NCBI GenBank assembly: GCA_000934665.2
Contig: JYFJ02002309.1
Coordinates: 1 to 59,520 of the forward strand
Source: Catajapyx aquilonaris
Lineage: Eukaryota
Length of the DNA stretch: 59,520 nt
Direction: 5' to 3'
Shown here one piece after another: positions 10,176 to 48,800 of this stretch; the first letter of the stretch is position 1, and each line of letters begins with the position of its first letter. Under the pieces are notes generated by a model. That model ran no database searches. It saw only the letters and a program-made list of their open reading frames with translations, and was not told the DNA's origin. A program made the translations under genes and the position numbers.

Positions 10176-10280
10176 AGGCTCAGCCGCCCCCTCCAGGTTG
10201 TCTTCCATCAGCATAGGCCGCAATAACTGAGGCCCCTCCAGGCCGTCTGTCCTCTCGCCCTCCAGGTCGCTCGGGTCCAG

Positions 10281-18934: not shown

Positions 18935-19180
18935 TTTATTATTGCCGTTTTCAACGCCTCCTGAGTCCCCTTGAACGCGCGTATCATGTGCGGAATTTTT
19001 TTATAGTGAAACCACCCCCCGCACCTCCCCCACCCAGCAAAATCTCCGCCCACAAACTGACGCACGTGTATGTATGGGGTGTTATTGTACAATTTTGCGA
19101 CGCTATACCAATCATTGTCGTATATCTCAATGGCCGGAATCTTCCGCCCTATGTTGCCCCTGCTGCAATGTTCCACCGTG
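18935..19180 (-). pseudogene. PC4-like domain fragment
   Basis: IPAIEIYDNDWYSVAKLYNNTPYIHVRQF..GRCGGWFHYKKIPHMIRAF, a clear homolog of 37285-37510. Confidence 0.6.
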
Positions 19181-22214: not shown

Positions 22215-22356
22215 TATCTGTGCCAGTTTGTGGTCATAATTCGAGGACAGAATACGCCTTTCAATTACATCTCTACGATGCTCACATTTGTCGTATATGT
22301 GGGGAAAAAAACAAATATAGTGTACAGGGCCCAGCATAAAGGCGCTACGGGGCCAT

Positions 22357-24365: not shown

Positions 24366-24429
24366 TTCTGGAACAATGATACACAAATGTTAGAACAATG
24401 ATTTATTTAGACATAATTGAGGCAATGAT

Positions 24430-24596: not shown

Positions 24597-27086
24597 TCAC
24601 ACATTTTTATAATGTCCAATAGCTCGGGTCATCTTCCCATCAAGTAGAATATGGCGCTTGTCATCAAACGCATTTAGAGCAATTTTCTTAGAAGTTACAG
24701 TATGTACATTGTGATCCGTACTCCTAATGGCAGTCATTGAGCAATATTCCGTGGTTTGTTGCTCAAGAACTTTTTTATATACATCATGCGTCAGATGTGA
24801 GCGACTCTTTTTCCCAACTCCTTTTGCGGTGGCCTTGTGGGTCATGTCCACCATCTCCAAAGAATAACATTTTGCTCGCAATCCGACAAAAGACTTAATT
24901 ATTTCTCCACTCATTTCATCCTTAAATTTACCAGGGACTTTCTTATTGGTTACATCATGGAGGCGGTGGGTGGGGGGAAATTCTGACAGACCAAAGAGAT
25001 GTTTGTGTTTTAACATATCCTCATAGACATCACTTCCAGTCACATGAATCAAAAGGCTGTCGGTATCGGTGAAACACAATTCGCACTTCTCACCGTACAA
25101 AGGAAGCAAGTGATTATAAAAAATTTATACATAACCCTCTTGGCCGCCTCCAGAATGCAAAATCCAATTGCAATGGGTTGGTTCAGCACCACATTAATCT
25201 TCTGCTTACTCACCTGAACCAAATCCTCAGCCAAAATTTTCATATTTTTAAAACTAGGTTTCTTCATCACTTTTTTGGCACGCTTCCCACTCGTAATTAA
25301 CTCCAAATTAACATATTTCCGGACTGATTGTAACATTTTCCCATAAATTGAATTGTTGGCTAATTTGAATAGACTTTTTTCAAAGTCATTAGTGGCAGCC
25401 TTCCTCAAACTTGAATTCAGGTCAATATATTTTTTAACACAGGTGCTTGCTCAAATTGAAGAATTCTGTGGACTTTAGAAAGTTGCAGACCATGTTGAAC
25501 ATACATCTGCAAGTTTCTATAGTCCACAACATAGTTTTCTTTATCAAGTAAATTCAGAATCAATTTCTCATTAAATTTGGCATGCGGAAGTGATCTCTGA
25601 AAGTCTGATAGATGCTCATCCTTCACACACATTTTCTCGGGGGCCATTGGGAAATGAGAATGTCATGCAGTTCTCTGGGATATTTCAAGTCAACTTCCAA
25701 AATATATCCAATAGGACTATCATGCGGTGTTGCCATCACCTCATAAATTTTTTTAGGTGAAACCCATTGATATCCTACGGGCATGGATAGTGCCATTACA
25801 AATCCATATAAATTGTTCGCATCGAGATATAATAAAAAGGACTCGGGTCTGGATGGATCATACAAATCACCCATGTACCGATTATTGGCTTCAGCATACC
25901 GCTTGGCCACCATGGCAACACCGCCTCTCAAGCGTCTTTCAATGAAAATATGAGCCTCTACATCTGTCAGAAGACCCAATTTCACCCCAGTCTTTTTTAA
26001 ACAAGCATCCAGACTCAAACCAGGAAGAGAAATATAATGGCAAGGGTCCAAATCGTAATTCAGCTTACTAACACCTCTGAATTGTTGAAATATGTCACCC
26101 AACAATAGAACGTCTCTTTTCAGATAATGGTCGTGAAACTGACCTAAATTCTGACATTGAGTCACCTGCCAGACCTTTTTGGCAAAAGAATAATCCTCAT
26201 CAGTAATTCCCTGACTGGTTAGAGAGGGGAAAAAACCTTTCTTGGGGGGCAGGCACGTTTCCTCAAATTTTGCAAAGGAATCCGTATATTCATAACAATA
26301 TATTCCTTTTTGCCTAGTACAGTCCAATACAGCCGGATCAGTTATGACCTGGCTAGTGACAGGTAGGTTCAAGCCACTTGCAACTAAATTTTTGACTAGA
26401 GTGTTCAAACTAGTACTTAGAAAATTGAATGAATCTAGAAAAACAATATTATTTAGAGTTAAGCAAGTGATTTGCTCGCTGTTTCTAGCTATTAAATGGA
26501 TCTTATCTCCTTTCCTACCTGCCAAAGCCTTCACAATGAAATGTGAGTCATCTCACCCACATCTGAACCTTGGAAAATGGTTTGCATGTCACTATTAAAA
26601 TATGCCTCTACTTCACTCTCAATTCCTGCCATGGTGGTTGTCAGGTAGACTCGGGTCCTGATGGCCGGAAAATCACGAAACTGTAGATGCCACAATGCAG
26701 GTAGATCCAGATGATCAAATACTTCCTCCACAGTATTGAAGTATGATAGGTCGCCAGACACATACTGACGACAGATGTTGTTGAAGGCAGCATTTTTTAT
26801 GGAATTTATCCTGTAAAAACATTTGTATTAGTCACCATGCTTTCACAACAATTAGGATTACTTACAGTTGTTGGAGCTGGGTGATGTATCATACGGTGTT
26901 CCGCCAATGTCTGTGCATCTCTCATAAATCCATTGCAGATATTGCATCGATGATCTGTACTTATATGCCTGAATAACCTTTGCTCTGACCTAAAAATAAT
27001 ATGTATCAATACATATCAATATGATGTTATCTTATTACTCACTGGGAGCGGAAATCGCAGGTGTTGCAGCGGTGGGTTGACATCAT
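24597..27086 (-). pseudogene. Protein-primed family B DNA polymerase (Maverick pPolB) with spliced N-terminal C2H2 fingers; internally deleted and frameshifted
   Basis: FLDSFNFL, YLDANNLYG (motif A), KLANNSIYGK (B), FTDTDSL (C), GKFKDE, FVGLRAKCYS, FDDKR. Fingers CNTC/CNICNGF..H..H carry GT-AG introns. The EndoVII region is deleted near 26560. Confidence 0.92.
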
Positions 27087-29250: not shown

Positions 29251-30134
29251 TGTGGTATCCAACGTGTCTTTTTGTGCGATTGAGGTGGCCGCCAGAGGCT
29301 CTAATAAGTCTTCTGGTCCCTGGGTGTTGGTTTCTGTCGACAAACTTTCTTTCTTGATTCCCTGACCCGTCTTCATTTTTCGTGGTCTATCGGGGTCTTG
29401 TAATGCCTTAAACTCTGTTGTTAGCCTCTTTAAACGCCTACTTGCCCGTAGGGGTTTATTCTCTACCACTGCGTCAGAGTCTGATTCGATTTACCTCTCA
29501 CTGTCGGACTTATTGGACTCCTCCGACTCGTCCGATATCTCTAGTATTGTTCGATTCAAAACTTTCTGGGGTTCCACTGAATATCTAATGACTGATTCCT
29601 CTGGATCCATTCACTCGATCTTCATCCTTTGGATTGTGCTCTGATCATTCACGCCAGGCTGATTTTTCGACTGCCCTTAGCCTCCACCATATCAGATTAT
29701 TGCCAAATTCGACAACAAATTAGGGTAACGTAGCACATGTCAAGCTGTACTGAAATCTTGCAGTCGAGTCAGCCCGAGGCGGGAATAAGATCAGATACAA
29801 GACACAATCCTTTATCCCATCAAGTTTATTAACACAAACATTGGTACAACGAACAAGTCAGGTGAAACGAGTGATACAGGATAAACCACTTAATACTTAC
29901 ACCACCCCATGGTGTGATCTGTTGCACAAGCGATGACCAGTCAAGGCGAATAGGACACTGTTGCTCTTCTCACTCTCTCTCCCGTCTCTCGATCATCTTT
30001 TTTCAGCGCTCGTGCCATATTTATACCCCATAACATCCCGGAAGTTTAGTCAGTGCGTCAGCTATTTTTGTGGCTCATCCTTGAGTCCTCAAAATTACTG
30101 CTAAAACGTCGGTTTTACATCACATGATTTGACA
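29250..30134 (-). mobile_element. 5' LTR, PBS and start of gag of an LTR retrotransposon (truncated)
   Basis: LTR end ...AATCTGATA followed by PBS TGGTGGAGG (29689). TATAAAT and AATAAA inside the LTR; ATG at ~29610 opens a low-complexity gag-like N-terminus. The upstream LTR boundary is uncertain. Confidence 0.45.
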
Positions 30135-30709
30135 GGAACCTTGATAACTTTCCTGGTGAGGCGGCTGAGCATGATGTAATAACACCATTTTTACTCAGCA
30201 ACAAGGCCACAATTTTGGGGTCTGGGCTAAGGCCACCCAGTGTTTTGGGTGTGGCGGAAATCCTCTTCAGTATCAAGATTATTCCGCGAAGGTTGCCAAA
30301 CGGGTTATGATGATCTCATAATGAGATCATCCCCTATTCTGGGCACTTCCAAGTTATTTTCAGGTTGCTGATGTAAGGTACCTGAAATTCCCTTTTTATT
30401 TTTCATGCTTATCCCGACAGTATACATATGGCTGACATCTTGGATCGGAGTCGTCTTCCACCTTGCACATCATTATTTCTTTTTTTCTCCCTTCACTACG
30501 ATGACCATGAACTTACAGATCGTGTTACGGGTGCAACACTCGTTCGTTCCCGAATTAATATTGGTTGCAATCTCAACCGAAGTTATCACACATTGCTTTT
30601 TCTCCCAGACAACAAAAAAAACAATAAAAAATAAAATTGATAACGAATAATAAAAAAGGTTATATTTTTATTTCGGGGCCATGTGGCGTACAAGGAGGAT
30701 ACACGCCAA

Positions 30710-31460
30710 TTATGGCAGATCGTGGATGACCTTCACATCGTAATCAAACTCGGAAATATTCTGCGCGAGGATGTCTAGCGCGATGCGGACGTTTTGGTCA
30801 AGATTGCGGAAGGTCAGCAAGACTGGAAAATCTTGTGTAATAGTCAGAGTGGCGACAATCGGGAGCGGGGTGGCGGACCTGGAAAAAAGTGAAGCGTCAT
30901 TCGCTGTCGACCGAGGAGGCGAGGCCCGAATCGCTTGCCAAAAAAAATGACGGGGGGCACACGCAAGGCAGAGTGCCAAGGACGGCGCAGCATTTCGTGC
31001 AAATAAGTACTCCGTAAAGAACGGAACCGTGCGGTTTTCGCTGCAGACGCGACGGGCAACCTCATCTGAAACCCTCGCGAACAAAAGCGACAGCGGTCCG
31101 CCTCTTTTCGGAACGATGCAAATTTTGTAGGTTGCGGAAAGACCCCCCTGTAAGCAGGCCCGCCAAATTGAGGAAAACCCGCGAATTACGGCGAAGAGGT
31201 AGGCCTCATTTTGCCTGTAAAAAATACGAAATAAATTAGAAGCTATTTATTTTATTTGTGAATACAAAACGAAACCGGTGCAATGAAACCATTAATCGTC
31301 GGAGCTATCGGACATGTCTGACACAACCCCCGAGGTACGATCGCTTTCCGTCTCGCCGGGGCAGGCGACATCCCAGCACACGCAGCGCATGTTGGCACGC
31401 GGCCACGCAAGATCGCCGCAAATAGAACAGGTGATAATTCCTCAGGCAACGTTGCCAAAC
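30710..31460 (-). CDS. Orphan 'IRG..IWRAC' gene (spliced), Maverick left arm
   Basis: AYLFAVIRGFSSIWRACLQ..YKICIVPKRGGPLSLLFARV is homologous to NYILTIIRGLKTIWRACFQ..YTILVVPEYNGIMTLKFTEV at 36479-36691. Confidence 0.5.
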
Positions 31461-31924
31461 GGAACGAGTAATTTAGTTAATTTTGACACGGTTTGAACCG
31501 CCAGCTCCTGGGGCACGTCGTGGAATGGGTTGGGTTTTAAAAAGGAAAAGCGACAAAATAAAACTGTTCGACAATCCCACTTCCTAGGGCCTAAAACCTC
31601 AGCTCCGGCCTCGCTTCTGCATCGGGTTCGACTTTCGGGGGCTTAGTCCTCCCTGCCGGCCAGATCGGGAGGTGTACAGTTCGGGCAGAGTTGCCCAAAT
31701 ACGCTCATCACATGGGCCGCACCTCCATGAGTCGCAAAGGGGGAGGCCCATTTTGTTGCGAATAATAAATAGTTCTCCGGAAAAATCATTTTATTGAAAG
31801 CAGAATACTTCACACCTGTTCTTCTTCGTTGAAGTCAGCGCCTGCGGCACGCATGTGCCAATAGGTGCTAAACCGCCCCTCGCACGGACCTCAGCAGGCC
31901 TGTTTGCATTAACATGTTGGAGCC

Positions 31925-32125
31925 AATGTGGCCAATCTGAGCTTTCCCATCTCCATCAATGATGTGGCCATATTCGAACGGCAAAATTCCATCTCCGTCA
32001 ATTTATTCGGTTATGAAGACAAAGATATATTTCCCCTACGCATCGCCGAGACCGTCCTGTTACAACACGTCGATCTGCTACTGTTAGAGGAAAATGGGGC
32101 GAAACATTTCTGCGCAATTGCGTAA
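31925..32125 (+). pseudogene. pPolB N-terminal fragment
   Basis: NLSFPISINDVAIFERQNSISVNLFGYE..IFPLR..HVDLLL.E..HFC matches 38905-39100; fused by deletion to the tail of the DEDD-like gene. Confidence 0.85.
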
Positions 32126-32487
32126 CACGGGCATCCCCACTCTTCCACGTTGAACACGGGCCGGTGCAAATATCTGGCCAGCATGTCGCACTCTCCGTAG
32201 CCTGCAGTTGCAAAATAAATCAACGTTTTTTTTGCGCACAAGCGTAATCGCAATGTTTCTTACCTTTGGCGTAGAGCTTTGGGCGTAGAGGCTCGGGTAA
32301 TTCCTCGTCGCCCTTGTCAAACACTTTGGAATGCGCTGATACGGCACGACTCCCGCCCTAAACGGAATTTCGGATATGAAATCACGCGTGTACAGATTGG
32401 CGTATAAAATGTCTCTGGGCCAATGGCCCGCGGGCGTGCGAAACATTCAATGATTGGTCTCGGGATATGCATACCACCGATAGGGTG

Positions 32488-34987
32488 TGTCGGACCTAGG
32501 CAGGTACGGGTCCGAATATTAGTTGGATAGGGGTATGTGGCATGGCTGTACGTGAAATCACACAAGGCTGGTGGTTAAATTCATAACTCAATTTAATGTA
32601 CTCCGACTAACATACTGGTACCTCTGAATATTATAACAGTCAAACAATGTACAACTTCCTCCCTATGGAGGGATCCCTTTCAAAATCACATACTTCGCGA
32701 TTGAAAATTCTTACCTGTTGGAATGCTCAAGCTCTGTCTGCCGGGCTGTCAAGATGTGAAGTCTAGTTAAAATAATTCCGGCGCTGCTTTTATAGTGCCC
32801 GGTTTGGGGTGGGGTTTGCACCACGTGAGTGTCCTTTTCGGGGTTTTTACCAGTAATATCGACGTAATCCTAACATCCCGAAATGAACTTGTTGTATTAA
32901 TAAGGTGGGCTGCTCGTACTGTCCTCCGCTCTCGGACTCTAATGGCCTTTTGAATGGCTTTTCGGCGCCAGGATGTCTACTGCTTCATAGATTCCGGTGC
33001 CTTATACTCTTTGCTCTGGCATTGTACTGATATTCCCAATCATGTTATTTAAATGAGTTTACGGGGCATAATTATAGCAAACTACTTATTACGAACTTGA
33101 TTATGATAATTATATGAGTTGTTATGCCATGCTTGGCATGACAAATATCCACCCACAACGGAAAAGAATTTTCAATCGCTTTCTTGCAAGTGTTAGCATC
33201 ATAGCACTCATTACACTTAATACAGGTATTGCATTCAAATGCACTCTTTTTCTGGTTGCTACTTATCATTGTAACACAATACTTTTAAACACTTAGCGGT
33301 CTATAATTTATACGGATGCACATATAATTTCTCCACATCGGTCAGTTATACATGTCACTTGAACGATTACGTAAACCCTTTGAACATTGAATACATCGAT
33401 ATTGTGGTAACCTATTTACACATAAAAGAGAGATGATCAGTTCATTATTTAACATGCCGAAATTACTGGTTAATATTCCTATACAACTGGCGATAACTGT
33501 TCACTGCACATCACTGCATCGTAAACAGGCGCACTTGATATATAACTAAATTGCACTAGCACTGAAACATGCACTGGTTGTCTTCTTCAGCAGTTGGGCT
33601 GTATGCGAATGTCATTGGCACATCTCCCCGGACAGCTGGTTAACACACAATAGTCATAGAATTCTTGAAATTCACGGTAAGATGAGAAGCGGCATGTGGC
33701 GTGTTTTCTTATGTGACGGTCCTGCGGTGTCCATCCTAGGCCGTCTGTGCGGTAATGCTCTTTCAGTGCCTCCCACACCACGATAGGATTGTTCACTGCT
33801 CCTGCCGGATGTTGGTCGCTGATATACTTAAGTTCGGGCGACTCCCAGTGTGGACCGGTCCCTATCTTAAGTGTCGGTGTGCGAGTCAGCCACCGTCGTA
33901 CTACATAACCACACAACACCACAACCACACAACACACCGTCAAAATAAGTATGATAGCCATCTTATAGGTTGGTGTGTCTAGCTTAGGTAACACTGCCTT
34001 GGCTACCAAACCTATAATGAATCTACAAGCTTGTGGGCAGCGACGAATTTTCTTCGTTTTGTTTACATATTGTAGGGTGGTACTGACATATTAATGGATG
34101 ATTCCCATCTCAGTGTTTCGTATATACTCCAGGGTGGCATACTCATATATCATCCTAATTAATGTAATAGACACTACGCACCTTAGGCAGATCCCCTATG
34201 GGCTCTAATATACACGTACACATAACAGACACTACCATCAACCTAAACAATCACAACCACCACTTCCAACACTCAAAATTTTTTTAATTACATTTAGCGT
34301 TAATCATCATTATCCTGCAGGCTGCGCCAATTGTCGGACCTAGGCAGGTACGGGTCCGAATATTAGTTGGATAGGTGTATGTGGCATGGCTGTATGTGAA
34401 ATCACACAAGGCTGGTGGTTAAATTCATAACTCAATTTAATGTACTCCGACTAACATACTGGTACCTCTGAATATTATAACAGTCAAACAATGTACAACT
34501 TCCTCCCTATGGAGGGATCCCTTTCAAAATCACATACTTTGCGATTGAAAATTCTTACCTGTTGGAATGCTCAAGCTCTGTCTGCCGGGCTGTCAAGATG
34601 TGAAGTCTAGTTAAAATAATTCCGGCGCTGCTTTTATAGTGCCCGGTTTGGGGTGGGGTTTGCACCACGTGAGTGTCATTTTCGGGGTTTTTACCAGTAA
34701 TATCGACGTAATCCTAACATCCCGAAATGAACTTGTTGTGTTAATAAGGTGGGCTGCTCGTACTGTCCTCCGCTCTCGGACTCTAATGGCCTTTTGAATG
34801 GCTTTTCGGCGCCAGGATGTCTACTGCTTCATAGATTCCGGTGCCTTATACTCTTTGCTCTGGCATTGTACTGATATTCCCAATCATGTTATTTAAATGA
34901 GTTTACGGGGCATAATTATAGCAAACTACTTATTACGAACTTGATTATGATAATTATATGAGTTGTTATGCCATGCTTGGCATGACA
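32488..34987 (-). mobile_element. Complete 2.5-kb non-autonomous LTR element (656-bp LTRs, GGTG TSD)
   Basis: LTRs 32488-33143 and 34332-34987 (TG..CA, about 5 mismatches). GGTG on both sides, PBS TGGCGCAGCCTGCAGGAT (tRNA-Ser-like), no gag/pol. Confidence 0.92.
33587..33961 (-). CDS. Small single-pass membrane/signal-anchor protein inside the LTR element
   Basis: The first in-frame ATG gives MAIILILTVCCVVVVLCGYVVRRWLTR... (~124 aa), in sense orientation to the element; it is the longest internal ORF. Confidence 0.45.
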   Translation of the reverse strand: MAIILILTVCCVVVVLCGYVVRRWLTRTPTLKIGTGPHWESPELKYISDQHPAGAVNNPIVVWEALKEHYRTDGLGWTPQDRHIRKHATCRFSSYREFQEFYDYCVLTSCPGRCANDIRIQPNC

Positions 34988-35229
34988 GGTGGCCAATTCC
35001 TTGGGAACAAGTTGGCCCGCCGCATTCATGTAACAATGGGCTGCAATCAACAATCCCGAGCGATCCATGCTGTCAGACTGGAACTCCTCGGGCCGGCTCG
35101 GATGCGCGCTGCTGGGGGCAGGGGAGGACTCGCCTCAATCACATAGCAACAAATTGTTGGAGCTAATATTTATTGCGCATATATGGGATCCATAAAGCGA
35201 CAGCTTGTTGCAGCTAATGTGAGGACATT

Positions 35230-35936
35230 TCATTTATATTTGCTGGCCGCCGGGGACGTGCGAAACGATGGACACCGGCGCTGGGATGGGCACTTTGCTG
35301 ACCCGCTGTTTCTCCCTCTTGGACACGCTGGCGATTCTGAATTGAAACCCAGTGAGTTCGATCCACATCTCCTGAGGCCCCTCCATCTCGCAGAGGAAGC
35401 TGAGGGGCCTTCCGATGCACTCTTCATCCGCCCAAAGACACTTGTGGGCGTGGGAGAGGACGATGCAGTGTTGCGCCTTCCCAGAGTTTGATTGCTGGCG
35501 CAGACTCCACCCGTGATAGGATACTGGGGTTTTGGATGATTCCCAGACGTAGATCGCTTCGTGTCCCATGTCGTATCCTCCAATATACGCATCGGCGTCA
35601 TACCCGTCTGAAATAATGATAACACGTTTTAGGCTGGCGACGATCGCGACCGTTTAATACACTCACGCTGACTCAGATGCCTGATTATTTCTCTATGTTC
35701 CTCCCTGAAATCGATCTCGGCCAGCTTGGCACCCATGTTCGCGCATATTTCCCTCGCCTGAAACCAATTGGCCGTGTGGGTGGCCGATATGTAGTAGCAG
35801 CCTTCGCCGATCCGGATGAACGGCGATCTGCACTCCTATACCAAAAAAGTATCGATTATCCTCATTCGCAAAGCCCTCCAAACTACTCACCGCGTGCGCT
35901 CTGGAGGAAGAGAAGGGCGATAAGTAGCTGCCACAT
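35230..35936 (-). pseudogene. Secreted C-type lectin gene, copy 2 (GC-rich, spliced)
   Basis: MWQLLIALLFLQSARG|gtgag; ICANMGAKLAEID; YVWESSKTPVSYHGW..HCIVLSHAHKCLWADEECIGRPLSFLCE. Confidence 0.8.
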
Positions 35937-36478
35937 TTTTTTCCTCGACTGGTCAAGTCCCCTCTTTTTTTCGCCCATATATGCAGTTTCTTGGCACGGC
36001 CATGGGCATCTTGCCCTCGTTTGAGCATCTGGCGGGGTTTTCCTGCCCTTTCGGCTCCCATTGTGCGACTGGGTTTTGTCGCCGTCGAACTTGTTAAATT
36101 TGCCTTCCAGGTCGAGTCGCTCGTAAGATGCGACTTTTTCCCCCATTTATTAGCCATGGCCCTTCGCGCGGCTGAATCACGTAATGGGCCGTCTGCCTTC
36201 CCCTTTCACCCACGGCCGGAAATTGGTTGCTATCTATCTCGTAATCGCTCGGAGGAGGGAAGAATAATTGTGGCTTTCAAAAAACAGTGCAGACTCGAAG
36301 CAATCTCGCGCCATGCGGGCTTTGGTGATCCATTGCACCTTGGCGTCTTGATTGGCTCCCAGCACGGGTGCCTGGTGGGGCGACGGTGCTGCCATTAGGG
36401 CGGAGGAAATCCGCTTGGTGAACCAGGGGGCGCCACCGACGGAGGCTCGTGATTGCCTGGGGCGGTTCCCGCGCATAT

Positions 36479-37140
36479 TTACCTAGGGACGGTTGCAAAT
36501 TTTTTTGGAACCTCAGTAAACTTTAAGGTCATTATGCCATTATATTCTGGAACAACCAAAATAGTGTAAAAGGGGTTATCGCATGCTCGCCAATCTTTTC
36601 CAAGTTTTTGAAAGCATGCTCGCCATATAGTTTTCAGGCCTCGAATGATTGTAAGTATGTAGTTTTGATTGTGCCTGTAAAAACAATACAATTAGTGTCC
36701 CTATTGTTGCACTTATGCTCATAGAACTATGCATTGGAGGGAGGCTAAATCGATATTTCACTACCACCCTGTATGTCAGACTCTACACCCGATGTGGAAT
36801 CACTATCAGTATCGTAAAAATATTCTGCCCATACACATCTCATGCTAGTAATGGGGTAAGCTAATGCGGAACAATTTGTGCATGTAAGCCTTCCAAATTT
36901 TATGTCACCTCCTATCTCAATTTTTTTTATGCAACTTTGCAAGAGCATGAACAACCAGATCTTGATTCAGCTCAGAAAATGTGAAGCTAGTATTAAGATT
37001 GCCATGTGGAACTATCAGTACAGTGCAGACTATCATTTCCGTTTCACGCCCGTAGTTATCGTATAATGGAATATAACCTCCTGGGACATGAGTCTCTATG
37101 GCGATCCTCCACACACTTTCAAGGTTATTACAAAAATTGA
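36479..37140 (-). CDS. Two orphan Maverick left-arm genes (CxxC/acidic-tail gene and IWRAC gene, latter truncated)
   Basis: ORF pieces 36745-37114 and 36479-36691 lie co-oriented downstream of the PC4-like gene; homology to 30710-31220. Confidence 0.4.
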
Positions 37141-37284
37141 TAAAATATTGTCGTGTATGCCTGAAAGAAAGAAATGTATGTTCACTAATAACTGCATGAA
37201 AGACCTACAAATTGTGACATTACTATGGGCATATATGCAGGAACTATCAAGCAATCTATGCATGCTTACTAGTACATTAAAGGT

Positions 37285-38001
37285 CTAAGCAAATATGTAA
37301 CCTAATGCACACAGCTTAATCTCAGCAATTTGCAAAGCAGCTATCATGGCGGGAATTTTTTTGAAATGAAAAAAACCGCCATATCTACCCATTTGATCGA
37401 AATTTTGGTTAGGAAATTGGCGAATATGAAAATATGGACAATCGTTATATTTTTTAAAAATACCGTACCAATCATTATGATCGATTTGAATTGGATGCAT
37501 TTCTTCCATTACGCCATCATCACTGGGTCCTTTTAAAAAATGTGTAAATACTCGAAATGTCATCAACAACAAAATGTACATACTCTCGGGGGCCAGCTTG
37601 GGTAAGACGATAGCTTTGCGCTTAGTTGCAGCCGGTAAATATTTCCCTAAAATATAATAGGTTTTAATTTGAAGCAAACAAACTGAATAGACTTACGTGT
37701 AGGAGAGGGCTTGTTTTCATCATCCGAATCGTCAAAAAAGCGGGGTTTTGGCTTGCGAGTAATTTTTGGTGCTATAATTTCATCTTCGCATTCCAAGTCT
37801 GTAGGCTTGCGGGTAGACTTGGGCAACTTAATTTCTCCTTCTTCTTCTTCGGAATCTTCGTATTCGATTAATCGGACTTGTTGGACAGATTTGCGGAGCG
37901 TTCCTATCATAAGATATTAATGAAAAAACGAAAACGTTTTAAATGCGTGACTTACCAGATGAAGGTCCTGCCATAGATGGAGCCTGTTTTTTCGGGGGCA
38001 T
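37285..38001 (-). CDS. PC4/Sub1-like ssDNA-binding protein, 4 predicted exons
   Basis: TATAAAAA at 38073-38080; MPPKKQAPS..|gtaagt; acidic/Lys-rich N-terminus; then DWYGIFKKYNDCPYFHIRQF..GRYGGFFHFKKIPAMIAAL, resembling the PC4 pattern V..F.G...IDIREY..G.KG. Confidence 0.6.
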
Positions 38002-38297
38002 GTTGAGAAGGACACAGTTTACACACTTGGGAGGGACTGGGAAAAGTTACATGCACACATAGAGTGCAAGTGTTTTTATACTAATAGGAAACAATGTAGG
38101 GAAAACCCAATGTTTTTTCGCGAAAACATCCAGATGTGACCTCAATTGAGCAAACAATAACTTGGAAAGGCTCTACAGATGTGACCTCATAGTATGACAG
38201 AAATGATTGTTAGGGTGACACAATGAGAACAGATACAACCTTGATGTAATGCGTATAAATTCTAAGGAGAAAAAAGTAGCCCGTAAGAGAGTTAACA
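38002..38297. promoter_or_regulatory. Divergent promoter between PC4-like gene and pPolB
   Basis: Opposing TATA boxes (38073-38080 minus, 38254-38260 plus) and an exact direct repeat CAGATGTGACCTCA at 38131-38144 and 38176-38189. Confidence 0.6.
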
Positions 38298-41200
38298 ATG
38301 AGTAAGGTGCATGGGTGTGATCTATGCGATGCAAGGTTCGTCTCGAGTCACCAATTATTACAACATTTAAACACCAATCACCAATGTAATTTTTGCAATG
38401 CGACCTTTGCAAACCTCGAGGAGTTGAGAGCGCATCGTCAGACTGCACATCCCATACCAAATGTGGTAAGAAATTGGGTTTTAAAAATAATTTCGTGTCA
38501 TTAATTAACATAATTAGCCAGGATTTGTGCTGGTGAAGAAGAAGGTGAGATTGTGGCATATTTTCACACAAACTTTGAAATTATATATCGTCATTCTAAT
38601 AGGGAAGATGTGATCAAGAGGATGGTGGAAAAGATAATACGGCCATTTCAAATTTTGAGAGCAAGGGATCTAATTGGTTTTTAAAGAATTTTGAATATTT
38701 AGATATTGTAGCGGGGAAATATGTCGCTTGGCGAGCAGGGTGTTTTATCCAAATCCCCAAGGAATTGGTGAACAAGAGAGCCTTAATTAATGTACACGCA
38801 CCCGAAGACAAATGTTTTCTGTATAGTGTTGCCGCGGGTTTAATGAGACCTAGTGAGCATGCGAATCGTCCCAGACAATATGAGACGCTCATTGAGAGCT
38901 AGAATGTTTCAAATTTAATTTTTCCCATCTCTATAAAGGATGTTGGTAAATTTGAGAAGAGAAATTCCATCTCTGTAAATATTTTTGGGTATGAAAATCA
39001 TGTAATTTTTCCTTTGAGGGTAACTCAAGTAGACATGCCAGAACATGTAAATCTCCTATTGTTTGAGCAAAATGACTCGCGACATTTTTGCACCATCTCA
39101 GACCTAAGCAGGTTGCTGGCAACAGGTCGAGAATCTGGGAGATATAACTGCCGTTATTGTTTACTTCGCTTTAAGAAGCCTTGCCAGGATCATGAATTGC
39201 ATTGCAAACAGTTTGATTTGCAGAAAACAAGCATGCCAAAAAATCCCATGCTAACTTTTAAAAATGTTCACAAACAGTTGCGAAAAAGTTTTGTGGTATA
39301 TGCAGATTTTGAATGTTTTATTACCGAGTCGAACAAACACGTGCCGCATAGTTATGCATACGTCATAATTAATGCCCGCGGAAGAGTGCACAAGTTTTGT
39401 TTATATCGTGGTCCAAAGGCAGTGAATCGCTTCTTAAAAAGTTTAGAGGCAGATGTAAACAGTCTCGTGCCAAAAATTCAGCAGCATCGGAAAAGGCGGG
39501 CAGGTATAGAGGAGGGGGAGGAGGAGCCTGAAATGTGTCATATTTGTGAGCAAGAATTCCAGTCTAACGATGAAATCGTTGTTGATCACGACCATAATTC
39601 AGGAGTTTTCAGTGGTTATGCACATAAAAAATGCAACTTGTCTTTTCGCCTCGATTCAAAGATTCCAATTTTTTCCACAACTTTGGCAGGTACGACTCGC
39701 ACTTTATAATTAGAGAAATGGCTGGCACGAATGCTAGAATAGAAATAATTACGCGTAATTCGGAACAAGTTATTTGTATGATAGTGAATGAAATGTGTTT
39801 TCTGGATAGTTTCAAGTTTTTATCCACAAGTTTAGAGAAACTAGTTCAAAATCTTGTTTCTGACCAACACGATTTCTCCATTGTTAAACAAGTGGTCAAA
39901 GACACGACCTTGGCGCAATGTTTTTTACGTAAAGGCGTTTTTCCTTATGAATTTGTTAATGATTGGGAGAGTTTGAATGAGATGGCCTTGCCAGGGAGAG
40001 AAGCCTTTTATTCCAAGTTGACTGGGCGTGGCATTACACAGGAAGATTACGATTTTGCACAACATGTGTGGAGAGTGGCAAATGGCAAGGATTTAGGGCA
40101 ATATTCGGATAATTATCTTCAAGCTGATGTCCTTTTACTTTCAGAAATATTTGAGGCATTTAGAAAATTGAGTCTGGCTACATACGGATTAGATCCTGCT
40201 CATTATTTATCTCTCCCAGGCCTGACCTTGGACGCGTGTCTGAAAAAACTAAAATCAGTGTCGAGCTGTTTTCTCATCCGGACCTTTACATTTTCGTTGA
40301 ACAAGGAATTCGCGGAGGGTTATCGATTATAGGACAAAGATTATTCCAGGCGAATAATCCTTATATGGGGAAAAATTATGATGCAACCAAACCTACGTCA
40401 TATGTTGCGTATGTCGATGTGAATAACCTTTATGGCAACTCTCAAACGTTATATCTGCCTGTAGGACATTTTTATTGGGGCGATCCAAAAGATTTTGATG
40501 AATGGATTCGTAATAATGCTGTAGACGTGGCGGATGACTGAGGTGGGGTACATGTTACGAGTTGATTTATACTATCCTGCACACCTGCATAAGACGCATT
40601 CTTGCTATCCCTTGGCGCCAGAAAAATTAATTGTGAAAGACGAATGGTTGTCAGACTTTCAACTTACCATGAGTGGACGCAAAGCACCTTCAAAAATTTC
40701 AAAACTGGTTCCATCTCTGTTTCATAAAAAGAACTATATTGTTGACTATATATGTCTGAAGCTGTACTTGAAGCACGGTTTAAAATTAACTGCCATACAT
40801 AGAGTATTGCAATATAAACAGGCCCCCATTTTAAGAGAGTACATTGAACTTAACAATGGGTTACGAAAGGATGCAAAAAATGAATTTGAAAAAGCGCAAT
40901 TTAAATTATTAAATAATGCACTTTACGGAAAGTGTTTAGAAAACATTAGAAATCGAAGCATTTTCACTCTGATTACCCAGCATAAAAATCTCGCTCGACA
41001 CATGAATGCTCCTTCCCTCCAAAGGGCAATAATTTTAGCCAAAGATTTGGTTTTGGTGCAAAAACGCAAACTTTGTGTGGAATTATGTAAACCTATAATT
41101 ATCGGGTTCACCATTCTCGAATCAAGCAAATAATTAATGTATGAATATCATTATGAATTCATTCGGCCATTATATAAAGATAAATGTGTCCTGCTTATGT

Positions 41201-41673
41201 CTGATACAGACTCCTTCGCGTACGGAATTGAAACACAAGATTTGTACGAGGATATGCAGGCAAACAGCGAGCGCTATGATTTTTCAAACTATCCAAAAAA
41301 CCATAAATTATTCGACGACAGTCGTAAATCTAAACTGGGTTTGATGAAGGATGAAAATGCTGGGCAAATCGCCATATCTTTCGTAGGATTACGACCGAAA
41401 TGTTATAGCATTGAATTGGATGATGGTAGTGAAAAGCGCGCGTCAAAAGGCACTAGTCGCTCTGCCAAGCTCCGTCATGACGTGTATAAGCAAGTTTTAA
41501 ATAATCAGGTTGCAATCTATCGAAATGAGGTGCACATTCGGAGCAAAAAACACGTTGTCTCCACTGAAACCCTGTCCAAGGTCGCTTTACAACCATATGA
41601 TGATAAAAAATATATTCACGACGATGGTATCACCACTACATTTCTGGGTCATGTAGAAAATGCTAAGAAATAA
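38298..41673 (+). pseudogene. Near full-length Maverick pPolB (2x C2H2 fingers, EndoVII, exonuclease, polymerase), disabled
   Basis: CDLC..H..H/CNFC..H..H exon; YADFEC; CHICE..DHDHNSG..AHKKCN; HNFGRYDSHF; YVDVNNLYG; KLLNNALYGK; SDTDS; GLMKDE; YDDKK. Stops at ~38899 and 41131, frameshifts near 39670, 40245 and 40535. Confidence 0.95.
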
Positions 41674-41699
41674 AAAATTTCCTCTATATGTTTATTTTT

Positions 41700-42462
41700 T
41701 TATATGCTTACATCATCCTCTTCCCACCCAACATTTGGCGATTGCAGCGGTGAAGAAACAGCCTCTTCACTCGACGCCTCAGGCACACCAAGGTCAGCAA
41801 GGGGTGTCTCCATGGAAGAGGGGGGAATAGGCTCGATGTACGCGATGGTGAGGAGCCTCACTGACAGGGACTCGGCCCAATTAGCAATCATCGTGACTCT
41901 TGAAATTGCACAATCATGTTGCAGATGGCAGCTCTTGGCATTGGCAGCGAAATAGGTCTTCAGGGTGTTGAAATCGGGGCATTGAAGCGTATCCACGTTG
42001 ACTACCACCCGTCTTAAATATGTCTCCAACATTTCACACTGCACAATCCCTGTAAAAATTTGAAAAATCCTCTAAACTGTCCCGAAGTTTGCACTTTTTT
42101 GTATCATTCTGCCAATAAAAGCGTGCTCACTTTGAGCAAGTGAAAAAATCGTGATTTGACGGCATAAAAAGTGATAAGAGACAGTACCTTTCGAGTAGAC
42201 TGTTGCATGATTCAGAGTGGCTTCAGTCAAACATCTGCCAATGTTGTAATTGGGCACAAATCCGGATGTAAAGAGAATCCCTGAAATGTAGTTTCTCGTT
42301 TGCAAATTTGAACATAAAATGGTGCTGCCCCGCAGGACAACGGAATATCCAATGATTTGTCTCGGCCGGATGAGTTCCTATGGTTAAAGTGGCTTCTTTC
42401 GGAAATAGCACCCCATCTGCATTTACGTAACAATGCGACTCAATGATTACACCTGGTTCCAT
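41700..42462 (-). pseudogene. DEDD-like gene, most complete copy (spliced), convergent with pPolB
   Basis: MEPGVIIESHCY..FPKEA..NHWIFR..VYSKG|intron|..NVDTLQCPDFNTL..C.LQHDCAISRV..W. Confidence 0.65.
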
Positions 42463-42633
42463 GGTGGTAGACTGTTGGCCGAAAACACCCTTTCCTTGAT
42501 ATAGGTTTTTGCGTGTTGTGCGTGCGCACTCACCCGGAAGTCTTGTTGTCAGATAGAATAATGGAACGGTCTCTATTGCAGTCGATTTATTCAATATACA
42601 ATACTCTTCTGCTACTAACAATGGAGCTGTTTA

Positions 42634-43376
42634 TCAATATTTTTGTTCGCCCATAACAAGTGGAATTATGGGCAGTGGGGCTGGTATTGGGATCTTATTA
42701 TCCCTCTTTTTCTCCTTTTTAGATATGCTACGAATCTTAAATTGCAGCCCCGATAGTTCTAACCACAATTCTTCAGGTTGAGACATTTCACAAAGGAAAC
42801 TAATGGGAATACCGATACAGGGTGCGTCGGCCCACATAAACTCGTGTGCGTGTGAGAGCATGACGCAATGTTCCAGTGAACCAGTATTTGAGGGCTGGGT
42901 TTTTCCCCAACCGTGATATTTAAGCGCTTGTTTGTTAGCCTCCCACACATAGGCTCCTTCATGACCAATGTCGTAAGCCCCAATATACAGATGCGTAGGG
43001 AAATCCTCTAAAAATATAAAAAGTATCAGCAATGCATACATTACAATTTTTTTTTTAAACTTACTTTGCACCAAAAAATTCACTATTGCTCTATGTTCAT
43101 CAGCCGTATCGATCATTGCTAAATGGGAGTTCATATTGGCACAAATTTCTGAGGACTGGAACCAATTAGCAACATGGGTAGACGATGAATAATAGCAACC
43201 CGTTCCGATACTCGTAAACGGAGATCTACACTCCTCTTGCGCTAGAAATAATAAAGAAACCTCTCCAACCCCCCATCACTAATAAAAAATCGTTTATACT
43301 TACAGTTTGCGTTTTGCAGCAGGAGAAGAGCAGTTGTAAAGAGTAGCAACATTTTCGTATTGTTGGTGATCTTCAT
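42634..43376 (-). CDS. Secreted C-type lectin gene, copy 3 (spliced, partly damaged)
   Basis: MLLLFTTALLLLQNANC; ICANMNSHLAMID; LYIGAYDIGHEGAYVWE..WGKTQPSNTGSLEHCV..WADAPC..FLCE. Confidence 0.85.
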
Positions 43377-43390
43377 TCTCGTCTTCTCCT

Positions 43391-43978
43391 TTATATGCTC
43401 ATGTGTACATACGGGCTGCTTTCATATGGTTTGACTTGCGCATACCATTTCGGGTTGTAGAACTCGATTGCTGGGATCCCGTCTGTCGAGATCAATTGCT
43501 TCGAGGTGAAGGGACCTCCCAGAGAAATGATACCTGAGAAGACAGTGGACATACAGTTTAACATCGAGGGCTGATTATCAGAATATATACACTTACTCTT
43601 TTTCGGGGTGTGGTGGATCGCTTTTTTAGCTCGCTTCGCCTTCGGCTGCTTGCAATCTACAACCACCACTTCCTCTTCCTCCTCCTCTTCCACCGCCTCA
43701 TTATCGGCTTCATCGTCTTCATGTTCATCATCACTAATAACTATATGAGAACAATATTAAATAAGATTAAAGAAGTCTCTAAAATCTATCTCCTTACTAT
43801 TATTGATTCCGATTCATCCTCTTCTTTATCCTCCAGTATACGCTTTCGACATGTCGCCTTTCCTTCTTGCTTTACGGTTACGGCTACACAACAATGATAA
43901 ATGTTATTAACACTGTATCAGGTTATAGTAATAGTACCTACCGCTCTTACGGCTCTTGCGAAGGTTATTCTTCGGCAT
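43391..43978 (-). pseudogene. Further PC4-like gene (spliced, truncated within the PC4 domain)
   Basis: TATA/Inr at ~44050/44005; MPKNNLRKSRKS|gt; acidic/basic exons; GIPAIEFYNPKWYAQVKPYESSPYVH. Confidence 0.5.
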
Positions 43979-44087
43979 CTTGCTGTGGGTGTGGTGGCTA
44001 ACACTGAAATGAGCCCTTTTCTGCTTCATGTCAGGGACAGCCCATATATAAAACTATTCTTATGGCCCGTATCTTGAAGTACTCTTT

Positions 44088-45411
44088 TCATGTTATACTT
44101 GGATGAGTTTCCAGCAAATGAATAATCCATCCAATTGTACTACACATTGCGAATTTACAGATGCAACAATAGTAGCTATTCACATTCAGATGTGTAGCCA
44201 AATGTGCACGCAAGGATATTAACGGATTTACGTGATACCCGCAATCTATCATGGGGCATCTATCGGCCGTATCAAAACAAGTCCTTGACTTCTGCCGTGG
44301 AATCACTTCTACACCTACCGGAGATGATTTCAATACGTCGATCATTGCAACGGTGTGAGGAGAATGGACATAATTGGAGGATACCCACATTGGCTTCTTT
44401 CCTGGTACTGACACCTTGATGGCCTGTTGGTCTCTTGCCCAAGTCCACCTCGGCCTTGAGACGTAGCTTGTTGGGATGTTCTGGGGTCCTGATATGCTTG
44501 GTCCGTATACCACTGTACTACTGTCGTCTGTTGATGGATAGTTCAACCTTACTTTTACTGCTGTTTCTTCCATCAATGGTCCTAACCCCATTTCCTCCAG
44601 ACTGCTTTTGACCTGGGCTGGATTCATTGTGTATATATGGCTCAAACGAGCGGAACAGTCTTTGAAACTCATGCCACATCGCGGACCGCTCACAGCCTCC
44701 ACAGCATCCATTGGGCTCACCATCACCCTCGTCATCATGCCATTCCGGACCTAAGCCCGTCTTCAAATCATCAAAACCACCATCAATCTTTTTTTGCTCA
44801 AACGCTTCTGAACTGAAAACCTCTCCCTTCTTGTCTTTCCCCTGCGCCGCTTGCTTGTTATCTCTCTTCTTCGTTTCTGAAGGCTTGTTCCGCGTCTCCT
44901 TCTTGTCGTGATTTCCGTCTTCTTTCTTCGGCGTGACTAACACGCTTTTCTTAATGGTGTGCGAGGGGCTGGCGTTGCGCCTGTCGCGCCTTCTTTCTTC
45001 CTCCGGTATGACCTTGAATCCTTCAAAAGAAAAATCAATTTTAACCTCACGGTTAAACTGATCAACGTATTTCTGCGGGACGAAGGCTAGGTATTCAGCC
45101 TCGCTGTTTCCCACTTTTACCCACCGAAGTAAAATCTCATGATCAAACATCTTTGCCCGATGAATCGGACCACAATGTATCCTATTCTCATCGACCATTA
45201 AGTGGATTCCAAGATATGGAATAGCCACTGCAGCTGGTTTGTTCAAACAGAGAGCGAAAGGTATCCTCTCGCTCTTCACATATTTTTTCCTAAACGTTAT
45301 GTCTTCTAACCGTCCGCCAAATCCTTCCAGATATGTGCTGTCACCATAGACACACCCAAACTTGGTAAGGACGAAGAGGTGGAAAGAGTGCTGATCACCC
45401 TGGGACGTCAT
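44088..45411 (-). CDS. Two overlapping orphan ORFs (297 aa; 216 aa with two C2H2-like fingers)
   Basis: Long stop-free frames; CPMIDCGY..LRAHLATH and CCICKF..WIIHLLETH. Confidence 0.45.
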
Positions 45412-45500
45412 CTTTTTTTAATGACTTGTATGGTGCAATTATGCATAAGTTATATGAAAAAGAACAACGCTACCTCACAATGTTAAATTTTACTAGTCAT

Positions 45501-45888
45501 TTAACTACGTATAGGTGGAGACTGAGAGGGTCCAACAGTATATTTACTGTAAATCTCTGCTTATCAACTAAATCGTTATATTGGACTTTTCACATACAGA
45601 AAGTGTAGTTCAGATCATAAAATCACACGTTGAGTCAGCATATTCCGACTGAGAATTTTTAAAAATCAAAAGTTACATCACGTTGGAGCCGCTCAGGCTT
45701 CACCTACGAGATAGAACCAGAGCGGTTCCAGGAGGGATCTGTTCCTTGTCACGATAAAAATTTCATTCATTTTCATCCTTATGATTTTTTTCTGACAAAG
45801 TTATGGAAGGATAGGGGAAAATTCAGTTAAAATGTTAGATACGTTTAAATAGTGGTCGGAGCCTCTCAGGCTCCACCTACGTAGTTAA
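45501..45888. mobile_element. MITE-like element bounded by ~30-bp imperfect inverted repeats ending in TTAA
   Basis: TTAACTACGTATAGGTGGAGACTGAGAGGGTCC versus GGAGCCTCTCAGGCTCCACCTACGTAGTTAA; a third internal copy at 45685-45708. Confidence 0.5.
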
Positions 45889-48800
45889 GGGTTACGACAA
45901 ATAGGACAAACTAAAAAATTTGGGGCGACACTTTGAATAAGCTAATCGGACTTCGTGGTCAGAAATATAGGGCATGGGGTCGCTTCCATATACCAACAGC
46001 GGGGAATCGTTAAACTGCTGTAATTTGACATGAGTTGGAATTATCACAAATTTTTGCAGATGTCTACGGATATTTATCAATGGAACATGGGTTGAGGCAA
46101 GTTCCTAAATTAATTTCCAAACAGACTCGAAATCCGAGAAGTGTCGGCCAACGGTTAGGCCGGTTTAAAATACACTGAATAACTATTAGGAAATAGTGCT
46201 AGACAAATCGCTGTACTTCGCGGGAAATAAATGGGTTTGGGTTCAGATGTACGGCATGTAGCATTACTGATCCTCGCTACACAGGCAAGGGCGGGGGCGT
46301 AGGAGGACTTGCTGTGGCCCTGATGTCACCACCAGCACGATGCGAACCATTGTTTCTGCTCACGGTACCTGATGCCCGTCCTTCCGGGCCACGGAGGATT
46401 GGTTCTAAGCTGTAGAACCCAGCACCATCCACTGAGACATATCGTCCGACCGACACGTAGGCTTCTCGTTTGCACAGCCCGCAGTGAACGCCAACCACTG
46501 AACCACAACAATGGGGACAATAGACACGAAACCGAACAAGTGCTGACATTATCACCATACAATTGCTTTATTACACAGTGTGTAAGTTTACCTTTTCTAC
46601 ATGAGACTGAAAAATACATACACAACGTTTAATTATTTTGCAGTAAATTATACAGTAGTATTACCCGGCTCTTTGGTATTACCAATACAAGTCTGTCTTT
46701 TTTCCTGCCAATTTCTGTAGCATATACACGATTGCGTGTATGACACGTATAGGCTTTGGTGGGGGGCAAATACAAATAAAACCACCGTAATAATTGATTC
46801 ACAGGGATTTTTTTAAAAAAAATCACACCACTTTGCTGACCATCGTCATTCATCTATGATTGGGAGGAATGAAGATGTTTTGGGTGAAGTCGTATCCCGG
46901 ACACCCCGCTTCGCGACACATGGATACAAAGTCGGCGAATTGATGAAATTCCCACCATTCCCCTCGTATGTGGTCCCGCACATGTTCCTCCCAGGCAGTG
47001 GAGAAAAGTTGATGGTTGATCAGCTGTTCGTATAGGGGATCCGAAGAGACAATTGCGTCTGTGCCTTTCGGTTGAATGCCTTGGGCAGCAAAGGGCCGTA
47101 CCGCCGTAACTGCCCAAGTAACACTGAATTGTCGCATGATGATCGCCGAGCTTTCGCCGCGGTGATGCGCGATAACGCCCTAAAAATATGTGCGAGATAA
47201 TCCCAGGATAACATCGTACCGATGTTACTCTGAATATAATTTCCTGATGCCTTCAAGTCACTGCCCAAGAATTATCTATAAAGCAAGAGGGAAAGTATAT
47301 CGCCCAGACATTATGCCAGTGCGGCCATGAATATCTCCTCTCCGTTATCTTAGCTCCATGGCCAGGATATCCCCAGCGCGATCGTTTACAGAGGGACTGG
47401 ACATCTAATTGCTGTTATCCGCGTTCCATCATTGAACTATCGATGCTGAGAAAATTTCACCGGTCCATTTCTGCTCACCTCCCCGTCATTTGTGATCCAA
47501 CACCAATCTATTGCTACGGCGATGTTTCTCTTTGCAGGTGGTTGACGACACCCTGTCATTTGTTCTATATCGCCCCTGAATCTCTCAGGCGATCTGGTCA
47601 CGTGATTGATGTAAATGATGTACGTGCTGACGTCATCAGTTTCCGCCTGATGGTTCATGTAGTGGACCTCGCCGCACCAATCGTACCATCATCCGTGATC
47701 CATTTCCAGCATGTCGTAAGGGCGATATTTTCAGCCAATTTAGTGCGTCTTGCCACACGTTATCTGTGGTCTATCGCTCCCATATCGCCAAGGCGGTCCA
47801 GTTCGGTTGATGTGGAGCTCGAAACCAATGTTATCAGTGATCAATCGCTAAGGTATCATCATTGCTATTAACATGGCCTAAACTACCTTCTCGATAGCCT
47901 GTAATCTTTGCCACATTCCTTTTCCATCGCCAAGGCGAACTTTTCCTGCAGTTATAGATATCGGTACCTAATTAGAAATGCCCTATCTCAAACATATTGC
48001 CAGAGCGAGATTTTCCACACAGTTCCGCCAGTCCCCCAGCACCCTAACCCCGCCAACCCCAGCCACCTCCGCGACCCGCCTTCGCCTGCCCTTAGTTTTG
48101 AATTTGAATCAGCAACGGCCAATCGCCATCCGTGTCTCTCTCAGAGGGGAAAACCCTTGCTGGCTTCCGCCAGATCCCAACGGCCAAGTCCGCACTACGC
48201 CACAATAGCAGTGCCTGCCTAACCTTGCACAACTATGGCGAGCGAGAGCTAACGAAGACCAGACAAAGGCGGTAAATGCCCTAGGAGTGCATTCCAAGGC
48301 AAAAGGTGAGCGTAATAATGATTATTTTAGTCTCTGATGTGTTATTAGCCTATGTTTCACGTTACTGGACAGGATCAACATTCCTCCCTGGGGCAACCAA
48401 CCTTGATGGTTCGCCACTGAATCTGACAAAGAAAGTGAGGTTCCAGCAGTTTACACAAATAACCAGATTACTACATGGTGAGTATACACGTGTAGAATTG
48501 CTTTAAACTGTTGCATAGAAGTAGTCAGTCCTATTTACATGCTAAATACTGTGCTTTCCAGAGTCTTCAAAGATGGTAGTAAAAGTGAAGAATCCAACTG
48601 AAAAGGATGTAGAAACCTACATTAAATCCTGGCTCCTTCACTTCAAAGACAGGATCTCTCACCGCCCACACGGATCATCAAATCAGAACAACGCTACAGG
48701 ACAGGCATCAACAGAATGACATTATTTAGTGCATCATTCAGATAAAAAGGGTTGTGATATTCAGGTCAGTAAAAGGGGATGTGATGCTAAGTGCTGTAAG

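Follow-up and report, generated by a model that had tools for sequence, protein, structure and literature searches.

Gene content of the polymerase locus

The window analyzed here is the whole 59,520-nt stretch of contig JYFJ02002309.1 of Catajapyx aquilonaris (GCA_000934665.2), which is eukaryotic, repeat-rich DNA of low coding density. Our subject is a region at 30.7–43.4 kb, where the remains of a protein-primed family B DNA polymerase (pPolB) gene of Maverick/Polinton type lie beside a C-type lectin gene and three orphan genes for which we retain the names given in an initial annotation (PC4-like, DEDD-like and IWRAC). The best explanation for this gene set and its repetition is that it represents at least three long-diverged, now defective copies of one host-specific Maverick/Polinton lineage. 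Protein families were sought with Pfam in 386 stop-to-stop open reading frames (ORFs) of the window in three sets (143 ORFs of at least 90 aa, 150 of 58–89 aa from positions 1–35134, and 93 of 58–89 aa from positions 34922–59519), which omitted 14 small ORFs within a long terminal repeat (LTR) retrotransposon at 49983–51982; the small ORF at 38280–38501 was given a separate scan. Copies were compared within the window by self-blastn (DNA) and self-tblastn (protein), and copies outside it were sought among Logan contigs of the same organism at a likeness of at least 80%. Rfam and tRNA scans of the window gave no matches.

The region comprises two adjoining units, A and B. The pPolB pseudogene of unit B (38298–41673, + strand) contains C2H2 fingers (38280–38501), an N-terminal region, an Endonuclease_7-like zinc motif (38903–39706), and the exonuclease and polymerase domains. 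PF03175 (pPolB) was matched at 39628–41130 (+) and 25052–26552 (−), with E-values of 1.4e-12 and 7.7e-7, and a second Endonuclease_7-like motif was found at 10284–10571. Over 38636–41658, pPolB B is colinear (tblastn) with aa ~200–1254 of four full-length homologues (1220–1277 aa), with no intron-sized gaps relative to these four. Together with PF03175, this colinearity bears out the initial assignment of a Maverick/Polinton-type pPolB, here in pseudogene form. The coding sequence changes frame at ~39670–39690, ~40245 and ~40485–40540 (frame order 2>1>3>1), and a three-frame reading places these changes within conserved motifs; in-frame stops lie at 38900 and 41131. Over 39523–41636, a contig of 2114 nt that comes from another sample and study has the identical sequence, frameshifts included, which rules out assembly error as the source of the breaks. 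The lineage had been described as intron-rich, which does not apply to the body of pPolB, where the breaks are frameshifts; small GT..AG introns (50–67 nt) do occur in the lectin and PC4-like genes. The divergent intergenic region between pPolB (+) and PC4-like (−), as delimited by the two ATG positions (37911–38297), would be a promoter region common to both genes.

In unit A, the polymerase, which the initial annotation had treated as a kept gene in both cores, is a relic of ~83 codons (31847–32173, +) corresponding to aa ~288–371 of the full-length homologues; the rest has been deleted, and the deletion extends into the 3′ part of the DEDD-like gene of that unit. The expected place of the 5′ part of pPolB A is occupied by a repeat at 31.6–31.9 kb. 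A further copy, pPolB C (24600–26994, −), lacks the N-terminal half, covering aa ~570–1254 only with three frame changes, and is accompanied by a C2H2 piece (26857–26994). The 120 database pPolBs examined match the window in four intervals only. The exonuclease ORF of pPolB B has 262 database relatives, the best 120 of which are 39–49% identical, and the named members among these 120 are from insects (ants, fireflies, and wasps) and one coral. In a FastTree phylogeny of 122 exonuclease domains (the 120 best relatives plus B and C), a set that is biased to the best matches of B and in which deeper nodes are unsupported, B and C are sisters (support 0.993) at a distance of 1.38 substitutions per site, a pairing that would fit a separate, unsampled lineage. 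Alignment searches with pPolB and PC4-like for related loci in viral contigs found none.

The lectin gene of unit B (42634–43376, −) is open over 207 codons in three exons (43376–43304, 43241–43065, and 43007–42637), separated by introns of 62 and 57 nt with GTAAGT..YAG ends. When aligned with a further copy (copy D, described below), both intron stretches have indels and lower identity, and their removal restores one reading frame. The gene encodes a hydrophobic, signal-peptide-like N-terminal exon, a C-type lectin-like domain (CTLD), and a Lys-rich tail. The CTLD scores above the Pfam gathering threshold for Lectin_C (42637–43275; E = 3e-11; 44.5 bits against a cut-off of 22.6; profile positions 3–106 of 107) and matches 44 CTLD sequences in PDB at E ≤ 0.001, the best being mosGCTL-1 (9e-14) and GCTL-20 (1.1e-11). 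Of the earlier designation as a secreted C-type lectin, the lectin domain is thus well founded, and secretion is predicted from the signal-peptide-like N-terminus of the translation. The Ca2+- and sugar-binding positions of canonical CTLDs carry EPN or QPD, plus WND; lectin B departs from these motifs, with QPS and WAD in its translation. A word-index search of public proteins gave no homologue of the lectin.

Lectin A (35240–35935, −) also has a signal-peptide-like exon 1 and has intron 2 at the same position and phase, but canonical splice sites do not join its exons 1 and 2 in frame; lectin D has lost 1 nt close to where the CTLD ends. Lectin_C matches to both are weak (35632–35835 in copy A, with E = 0.0044 for this copy; 5838–6391 in copy D). 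The 5′ flanks of lectins A, B, and D are all different. Since B and D have only 25 nt in common upstream of the lectin ATG, and the flank of B is a truncated PC4-like piece, the promoter of lectin B has probably been lost.

The PC4-like gene of unit B (37285–37910, −) is open over 173 codons in exons at 37910–37697, 37646–37584, and 37529–37288; its introns (50 and 54 nt, GT..AG), as read from the sequence, leave the exons in frame. The predicted protein has an acidic/basic N-terminus and a C-terminal domain of ~70 aa that is conserved across three copies, with paralogues at 18928–19185 (38–44% identity; part of a solo copy, E, at 18871–19290, −, located by self-tblastn) and at 43394–43480. 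We take this layout, an acidic/basic tail and a ~70-aa domain, to resemble that of PC4 by eye only, and profile searches did not support the resemblance. Pfam gave no family at E ≤ 0.1, and at E ≤ 10 only the unrelated DUF6942 (0.21); a three-copy profile matched only a racemase in PDB (E = 0.32); a word-index search of public proteins with the domain found none; the ESM Atlas gave no usable match; and a single-sequence AlphaFold model was unusable (pLDDT 34). Neither a family profile nor solved structures therefore point to PC4/Sub1-type binding of single-stranded DNA, and the proposed identity as a PC4-like single-stranded-DNA-binding protein receives no backing from Pfam, the PDB profile search, the Atlas, or AlphaFold.

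The DEDD-like gene of unit B (41700–42462, −) converges on pPolB, with the two stops ~30 nt apart, and lacks, near 42330, 8 nt that copies D and A have, a loss that breaks the gene. In unit A (32014–35068, −) it survives as exon pieces at 34988–35068, 32276–32470, and ~32097–32220, broken by an in-frame stop (at a W codon position, ~32447) and by the insertion of an LTR element, and in copy D it ends after 97 codons; the gene is defective in all three copies. The inserted LTR element (32488–34987) has 656-bp LTRs that are 99.2% identical, TG..CA ends, and a 4-bp target duplication (GGTG). It is a young element of 2.5 kb with no recognizable coding domain. A Logan contig that joins 32473 to 34988, with many differences, represents a paralogue of DEDD-like A from which the LTR element is missing.

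Searches with the DEDD-like protein found neither a family profile nor the acidic motifs of a DEDD (DnaQ-like) 3′–5′ exonuclease. Pfam matched nothing at E ≤ 10, exonuclease families included, and a profile search of PDB matched only a designed Kelch repeat protein (0.0016). An exhaustive phmmer search of 1.84 billion representatives with copy B returned 3 matches, all to BspA-type LRR_5 repeat proteins (E 9e-7 to 3e-4 over a 26–37-residue motif); membership of the LRR_5/BspA family was rejected as a short-motif resemblance, with an hhalign probability of ~30% over 26–37 columns. An AlphaFold model from a 5-row alignment was unusable (pLDDT 41). The exonuclease label of the initial annotation thus finds no backing in Pfam, the PDB profiles, the 1.84-billion-protein scan, or AlphaFold. 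In the ESM Atlas, copy D matched unnamed arthropod clusters (0.90–0.91) and a Maelstrom cluster (0.87, with 154 shared features); the latter is below the counting level and serves as a lead only. A metagenome-contig locus considered as a relative of the DEDD-like gene was set aside as a chance match that has only a 16-residue motif in common with the window.

The IWRAC orphan is present in unit A (30713–31476, −; two conserved blocks, with one in-frame stop in the first) and in unit B (36482–36966, −; two blocks in different frames). In IWRAC and DEDD-like alike, two conserved blocks lie in different frames. IWRAC has no Pfam family even at E ≤ 10.

Repeated units and divergence between copies

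By self-tblastn, units A (30.7–35.9 kb) and B (36.5–43.4 kb) have four blocks in common, with order and strands conserved: IWRAC (−), pPolB (+), DEDD-like (−), and C-type lectin (−). The IWRAC blocks (A, 30713–31441; B, 36494–36894) are 36% and 41% identical (joint pairwise E = 1e-15), the N-terminal pPolB pieces (A, 31925–32173; B, 38903–39160) have 52–59% amino acid identity (E = 1.6e-25), and the lectin blocks (A, 35240–35835; B, 42640–43233) have 50–60% amino acid identity (E = 3e-61). DNA identity between A and B is only 65–72%. The initial annotation had described two tandem, well-diverged cores of the same architecture and a recurrence of the DEDD-lectin pair near 5271–6468, and these observations hold in outline: copy D (5274–6493, −) contains the lectin and the first 97 DEDD-like codons, and its homology to B, which ends at 5304 and 6493, amounts to 76.5% identity over 1218 nt (5304–6493 against 42213–43401, self-blastn). 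A truncated second PC4-like gene (43394–43756, −), which retains the acidic/basic N-terminus and the domain's first ~29 aa, lies directly against the start of lectin B; the order IWRAC-PC4-like-pPolB-DEDD-like-lectin therefore continues into a third, broken unit. The boundaries between units are ambiguous. Further debris at 10203–11081 (−) comprises an EndoVII-like piece of pPolB (10203–10571) and an N-terminal piece of the DEDD-like gene (10947–11081).

The copies differ from one another chiefly at third codon positions. Between B and D, differences at positions 1/2/3 number 6/2/25 in lectin exon 2 (58 sites per position), 6/1/38 in the CTLD part of exon 3 (~75 sites per position), and 4/3/18 in the first 41 codons of the DEDD-like gene (41 sites per position). 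Between A and B they number 52/34/81 in lectin exon 3 (135 sites per position), 21/16/34 in lectin exon 2 (62 sites per position), and 23/11/36 in the pPolB relic (66 sites per position). Nei–Gojobori estimates for 11 pairs gave pS of 0.58–1.03 against pN of 0.10–0.43, from protein-guided alignments that bias pN downward. The third-position excess indicates that the copies diverged while their genes, including pPolB, were coding, and that the disruptions came later. Insertions that came from separate active lineages would explain this pattern better than the copying of an already dead block inside the genome; an old duplication in tandem, with selection acting afterwards, may also have produced it.

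Between B and D, the spacer between lectin and DEDD-like (42463–42635), the introns, and lectin exon 1 (43304–43376) differ by 24%, ~27%, and 10%, respectively, and are thus less diverged than the third codon positions of lectin exons 2–3 (43–51%). Possible explanations are that compact regulatory sequence is constrained, or that the copies have a history of mosaicism or gene conversion.

Elsewhere in the window, three pairs of direct repeats are 96–98% identical (1552–2728 and 13477–14650; 14746–15331 and 21623–22215; 55532–55977 and 58295–58815), and the ORFs inside them belong to no Pfam family. The segments at 45486–46000 and 31602–32135 are high-copy short repeats, marked by summed contig depths of ~20900 and ~1400 over a background of ~50. 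Just to the right of the units, 44091–45417 (−) contains two long ORFs of 220 and 299 aa that overlap and match no family; a weak C2H2-like motif (E = 0.043) lies at the end of one of them. An LTR retrotransposon at 49282–52491, with 205-bp LTRs that are 100% identical, encodes a single ORF of 911 aa (49540–52272) whose Pfam matches are to retroviral-type aspartyl protease families only; because reverse transcriptase, RNase H, and integrase were not seen by Pfam in this ORF, the element may be a recent non-autonomous gag-protease element. A 186-aa ORF at 11603–12160 (−) has a 30-residue match to the N-terminal domain of the phage T7 tail fibre (E = 5.8e-6), in which no single stretch is significant alone, and which is probably a coiled-coil or low-complexity match.

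Origin of the region

On a modest balance of probability, we read the region as what is left of several elements from a single host-specific Maverick lineage in which accessory genes accompanied the polymerase, a linkage known from this window. Nothing in the region can function now: pPolB is broken in B and A, the DEDD-like gene is broken in all three copies, and open frames are kept only by lectin B and PC4-like B. Disruption of most genes in most copies would be as expected of dead insertions, and not of maintained host genes. This reading also draws on the four blocks common to A and B, the recurrence of lectin and DEDD-like in D, the third-position excess, the differing 5′ flanks of the lectins, the pairing of pPolB B with C, the pPolB frameshifts seen again in the second sample, and the paralogous contigs of parts of unit A elsewhere in the same sample. 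The host is an animal with short introns. The ancestral element would have had the PC4-like gene (for a small acidic/basic protein) and then IWRAC on one side, across a divergent intergenic region of ~390 bp from pPolB, and on the other side the DEDD-like orphan converging on the pPolB stop, together with a secreted lectin of a single CTLD. The polymerase would have replicated the element by protein priming, with the PC4-like protein as a putative nucleic-acid-binding helper in replication or transcription. The lectin would have been secreted and may have bound host glycans for attachment or blunted lectin-based immunity, roles that have been proposed for the lectins of other viruses associated with insects.

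Several observations weigh against this assignment. A whole-window self-blastn found no inverted match of at least 80 nt, and none of the 9 short inverted pairs in 29500–45500 forms an arm pair at the unit ends, so the terminal inverted repeats (TIRs) of a Maverick/Polinton were not recovered. No rve integrase core was found by Pfam in the 386 ORFs. A 5′-truncated integrase C-terminal/SH3 piece (23458–24402, −; PF22938, E = 2.5e-9) lies beside pPolB C; it starts only ~200 nt after the stop of that copy, which leaves too little room for a catalytic core, and it could equally be from a Maverick or from an LTR retrotransposon. Protease and ATPase families had no Pfam match in the 386 ORFs, a scan that decayed or spliced genes may escape, and capsid genes were likewise not found, a result that rests on the coverage of Maverick capsids by Pfam. 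The adenain protease invoked in the initial annotation was thus not seen anywhere in the window. Summed Logan contig depth over unit B is ~1.5–2x single-contig depth, and the family is therefore not abundant at identities of at least 80%; the contigs outside the window include one 87%-identical pPolB and one paralogue of the IWRAC A region, and relatives elsewhere in the genome are thus present but few. All of the copies lie in one 60-kb window, in which A, B, and the third fragment are co-oriented and periodic, an arrangement that would equally result from a host block duplicated in tandem long ago. Furthermore, none of the accessory genes flanks pPolB C, which is the sister of B, and introns occur in the accessory genes, whereas PMC8097293 reports intact vertebrate Mavericks to be intronless.

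A more specific proposal, that an undescribed, arthropod-associated Maverick/adintovirus-like lineage stably carries a secreted lectin and three intron-bearing orphans, with the lectin under purifying selection despite saturated synonymous divergence, is tentative and in our estimation somewhat short of an even chance. It would imply a viral lectin that served entry or interfered with the lectin-based immunity of the host. The three orphans had no homologues in public proteomes, the DEDD-like gene giving only the short-motif BspA-type matches, and the region hints at an undescribed Maverick lineage, with no working element in the window. The initial annotation had gone further, to a distinct virus-like family. 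The pairing of pPolB B with C fits a separate lineage, and the accessory genes are colinear with pPolB in diverged copies; all units are defective, without TIRs, capsid, ATPase, protease, or complete integrase, and therefore no family is definable from the window.

The principal alternative is that the accessory genes are a host lectin-family cluster into which pPolB was inserted, after which the block was tandem-duplicated and dispersed locally, the mobile element itself never having carried these genes. This would account for the confinement of the copies to one locality, where they follow each other periodically in direct orientation, for small spliceosomal introns such as host genes have, for the cellular mosquito lectins that are the best solved relatives of the lectin, for the failure to find TIRs or morphogenetic genes, and for the low contig depth outside the locus. 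However, the pPolB relic differs between A and B mainly at third positions (as given above), whereas a dead, copied polymerase should differ evenly. In addition, host paralogues under selection would not be expected to be broken in most genes and most copies, the three lectins have unrelated flanks on the promoter side, and searches of public proteomes gave no homologues of the orphans or, by word search, of the lectin. We thus regard a host-block duplication as unlikely, at perhaps one chance in a few, and retain the debris of a Maverick lineage as the preferred reading. Least probable by far is another endogenous viral or proviral arthropod locus (polydnavirus-like or from a larger DNA virus) with a captured Maverick polymerase and the lectin as virulence-type cargo: low coding density, units in direct order, and the account in the consulted part of PMC2646287 of bracoviruses with secreted, intron-bearing C-type lectins, and of Maverick-derived genes without terminal repeats beside or within proviral loci, would suit it, but no PTP, ankyrin, cystatin, or other polydnavirus-type family or large-virus core gene was found in the 386 ORFs, and pPolB is a full-length Maverick-type gene with the usual N-terminal regions.

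Comparison with known systems

There is a growing view of Mavericks/Polintons as viruses that transport host-like cargo as well. If our reading of the region is correct, the window would add a new class of accessory gene to Mavericks and a handle on the dealings of these elements with arthropod immunity. A narrower lesson is that the copies are dead debris, that two of the four functional labels (SSB and exonuclease) were guesses, and that the apparent introns of the polymerase are frameshifts.

Among known elements, adintoviruses and Mavericks with accessory or cargo genes (PMC8502044; 10.1101/2022.07.12.499685) are similar to the window in having a pPolB element with cellular-like extra genes. 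In the passages of PMC8502044 considered here, these accessory genes are membrane-active (venom-like) and gasdermin-like proteins, with a galactose-binding “lectin” fold in protist viruses; the genes named there include no C-type lectin, and no virion module was found in the window. The passages considered from the full-text literature on Maverick, Polinton, or adintovirus together with lectin do not place a C-type lectin in such an element. As described in the excerpts of PMC8097293, most vertebrate Maverick copies are degraded and without TIRs, with stops and frameshifts that gene finders call “introns,” and pPolB in the window has the same degraded pattern. In contrast to the eight conserved ORFs in two modules that the same excerpts give for intact vertebrate Mavericks, the window has a polymerase and four unrelated small genes, at least two of which have true small introns.

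Outside the Mavericks, bracovirus loci also have secreted, intron-bearing lectins in a virus-derived insect locus, with Maverick genes without terminal repeats nearby, although the lectins and Maverick remnants sit in different loci in the bracovirus case (PMC2646287), and no bracovirus family was found here. Mosquito GCTLs (mosGCTL-1, PDB 9t9z; mosGCTL-20, PDB 9ta9) are likewise single secreted CTLDs, whereas the lectin of the window has the QPS/WAD positions, a Lys-rich C-terminal tail, and a pPolB neighbour. Compared with insect and cnidarian Maverick polymerases (PF03175 plus a PF02945-like zinc motif), pPolB B is broken, is 39–49% identical in the exonuclease domain (best 120 of 262 relatives), and is not accompanied by the usual integrase, ATPase, protease, and capsid neighbours; it nevertheless has the same pair of Pfam families, with C2H2 fingers at its N-terminus.

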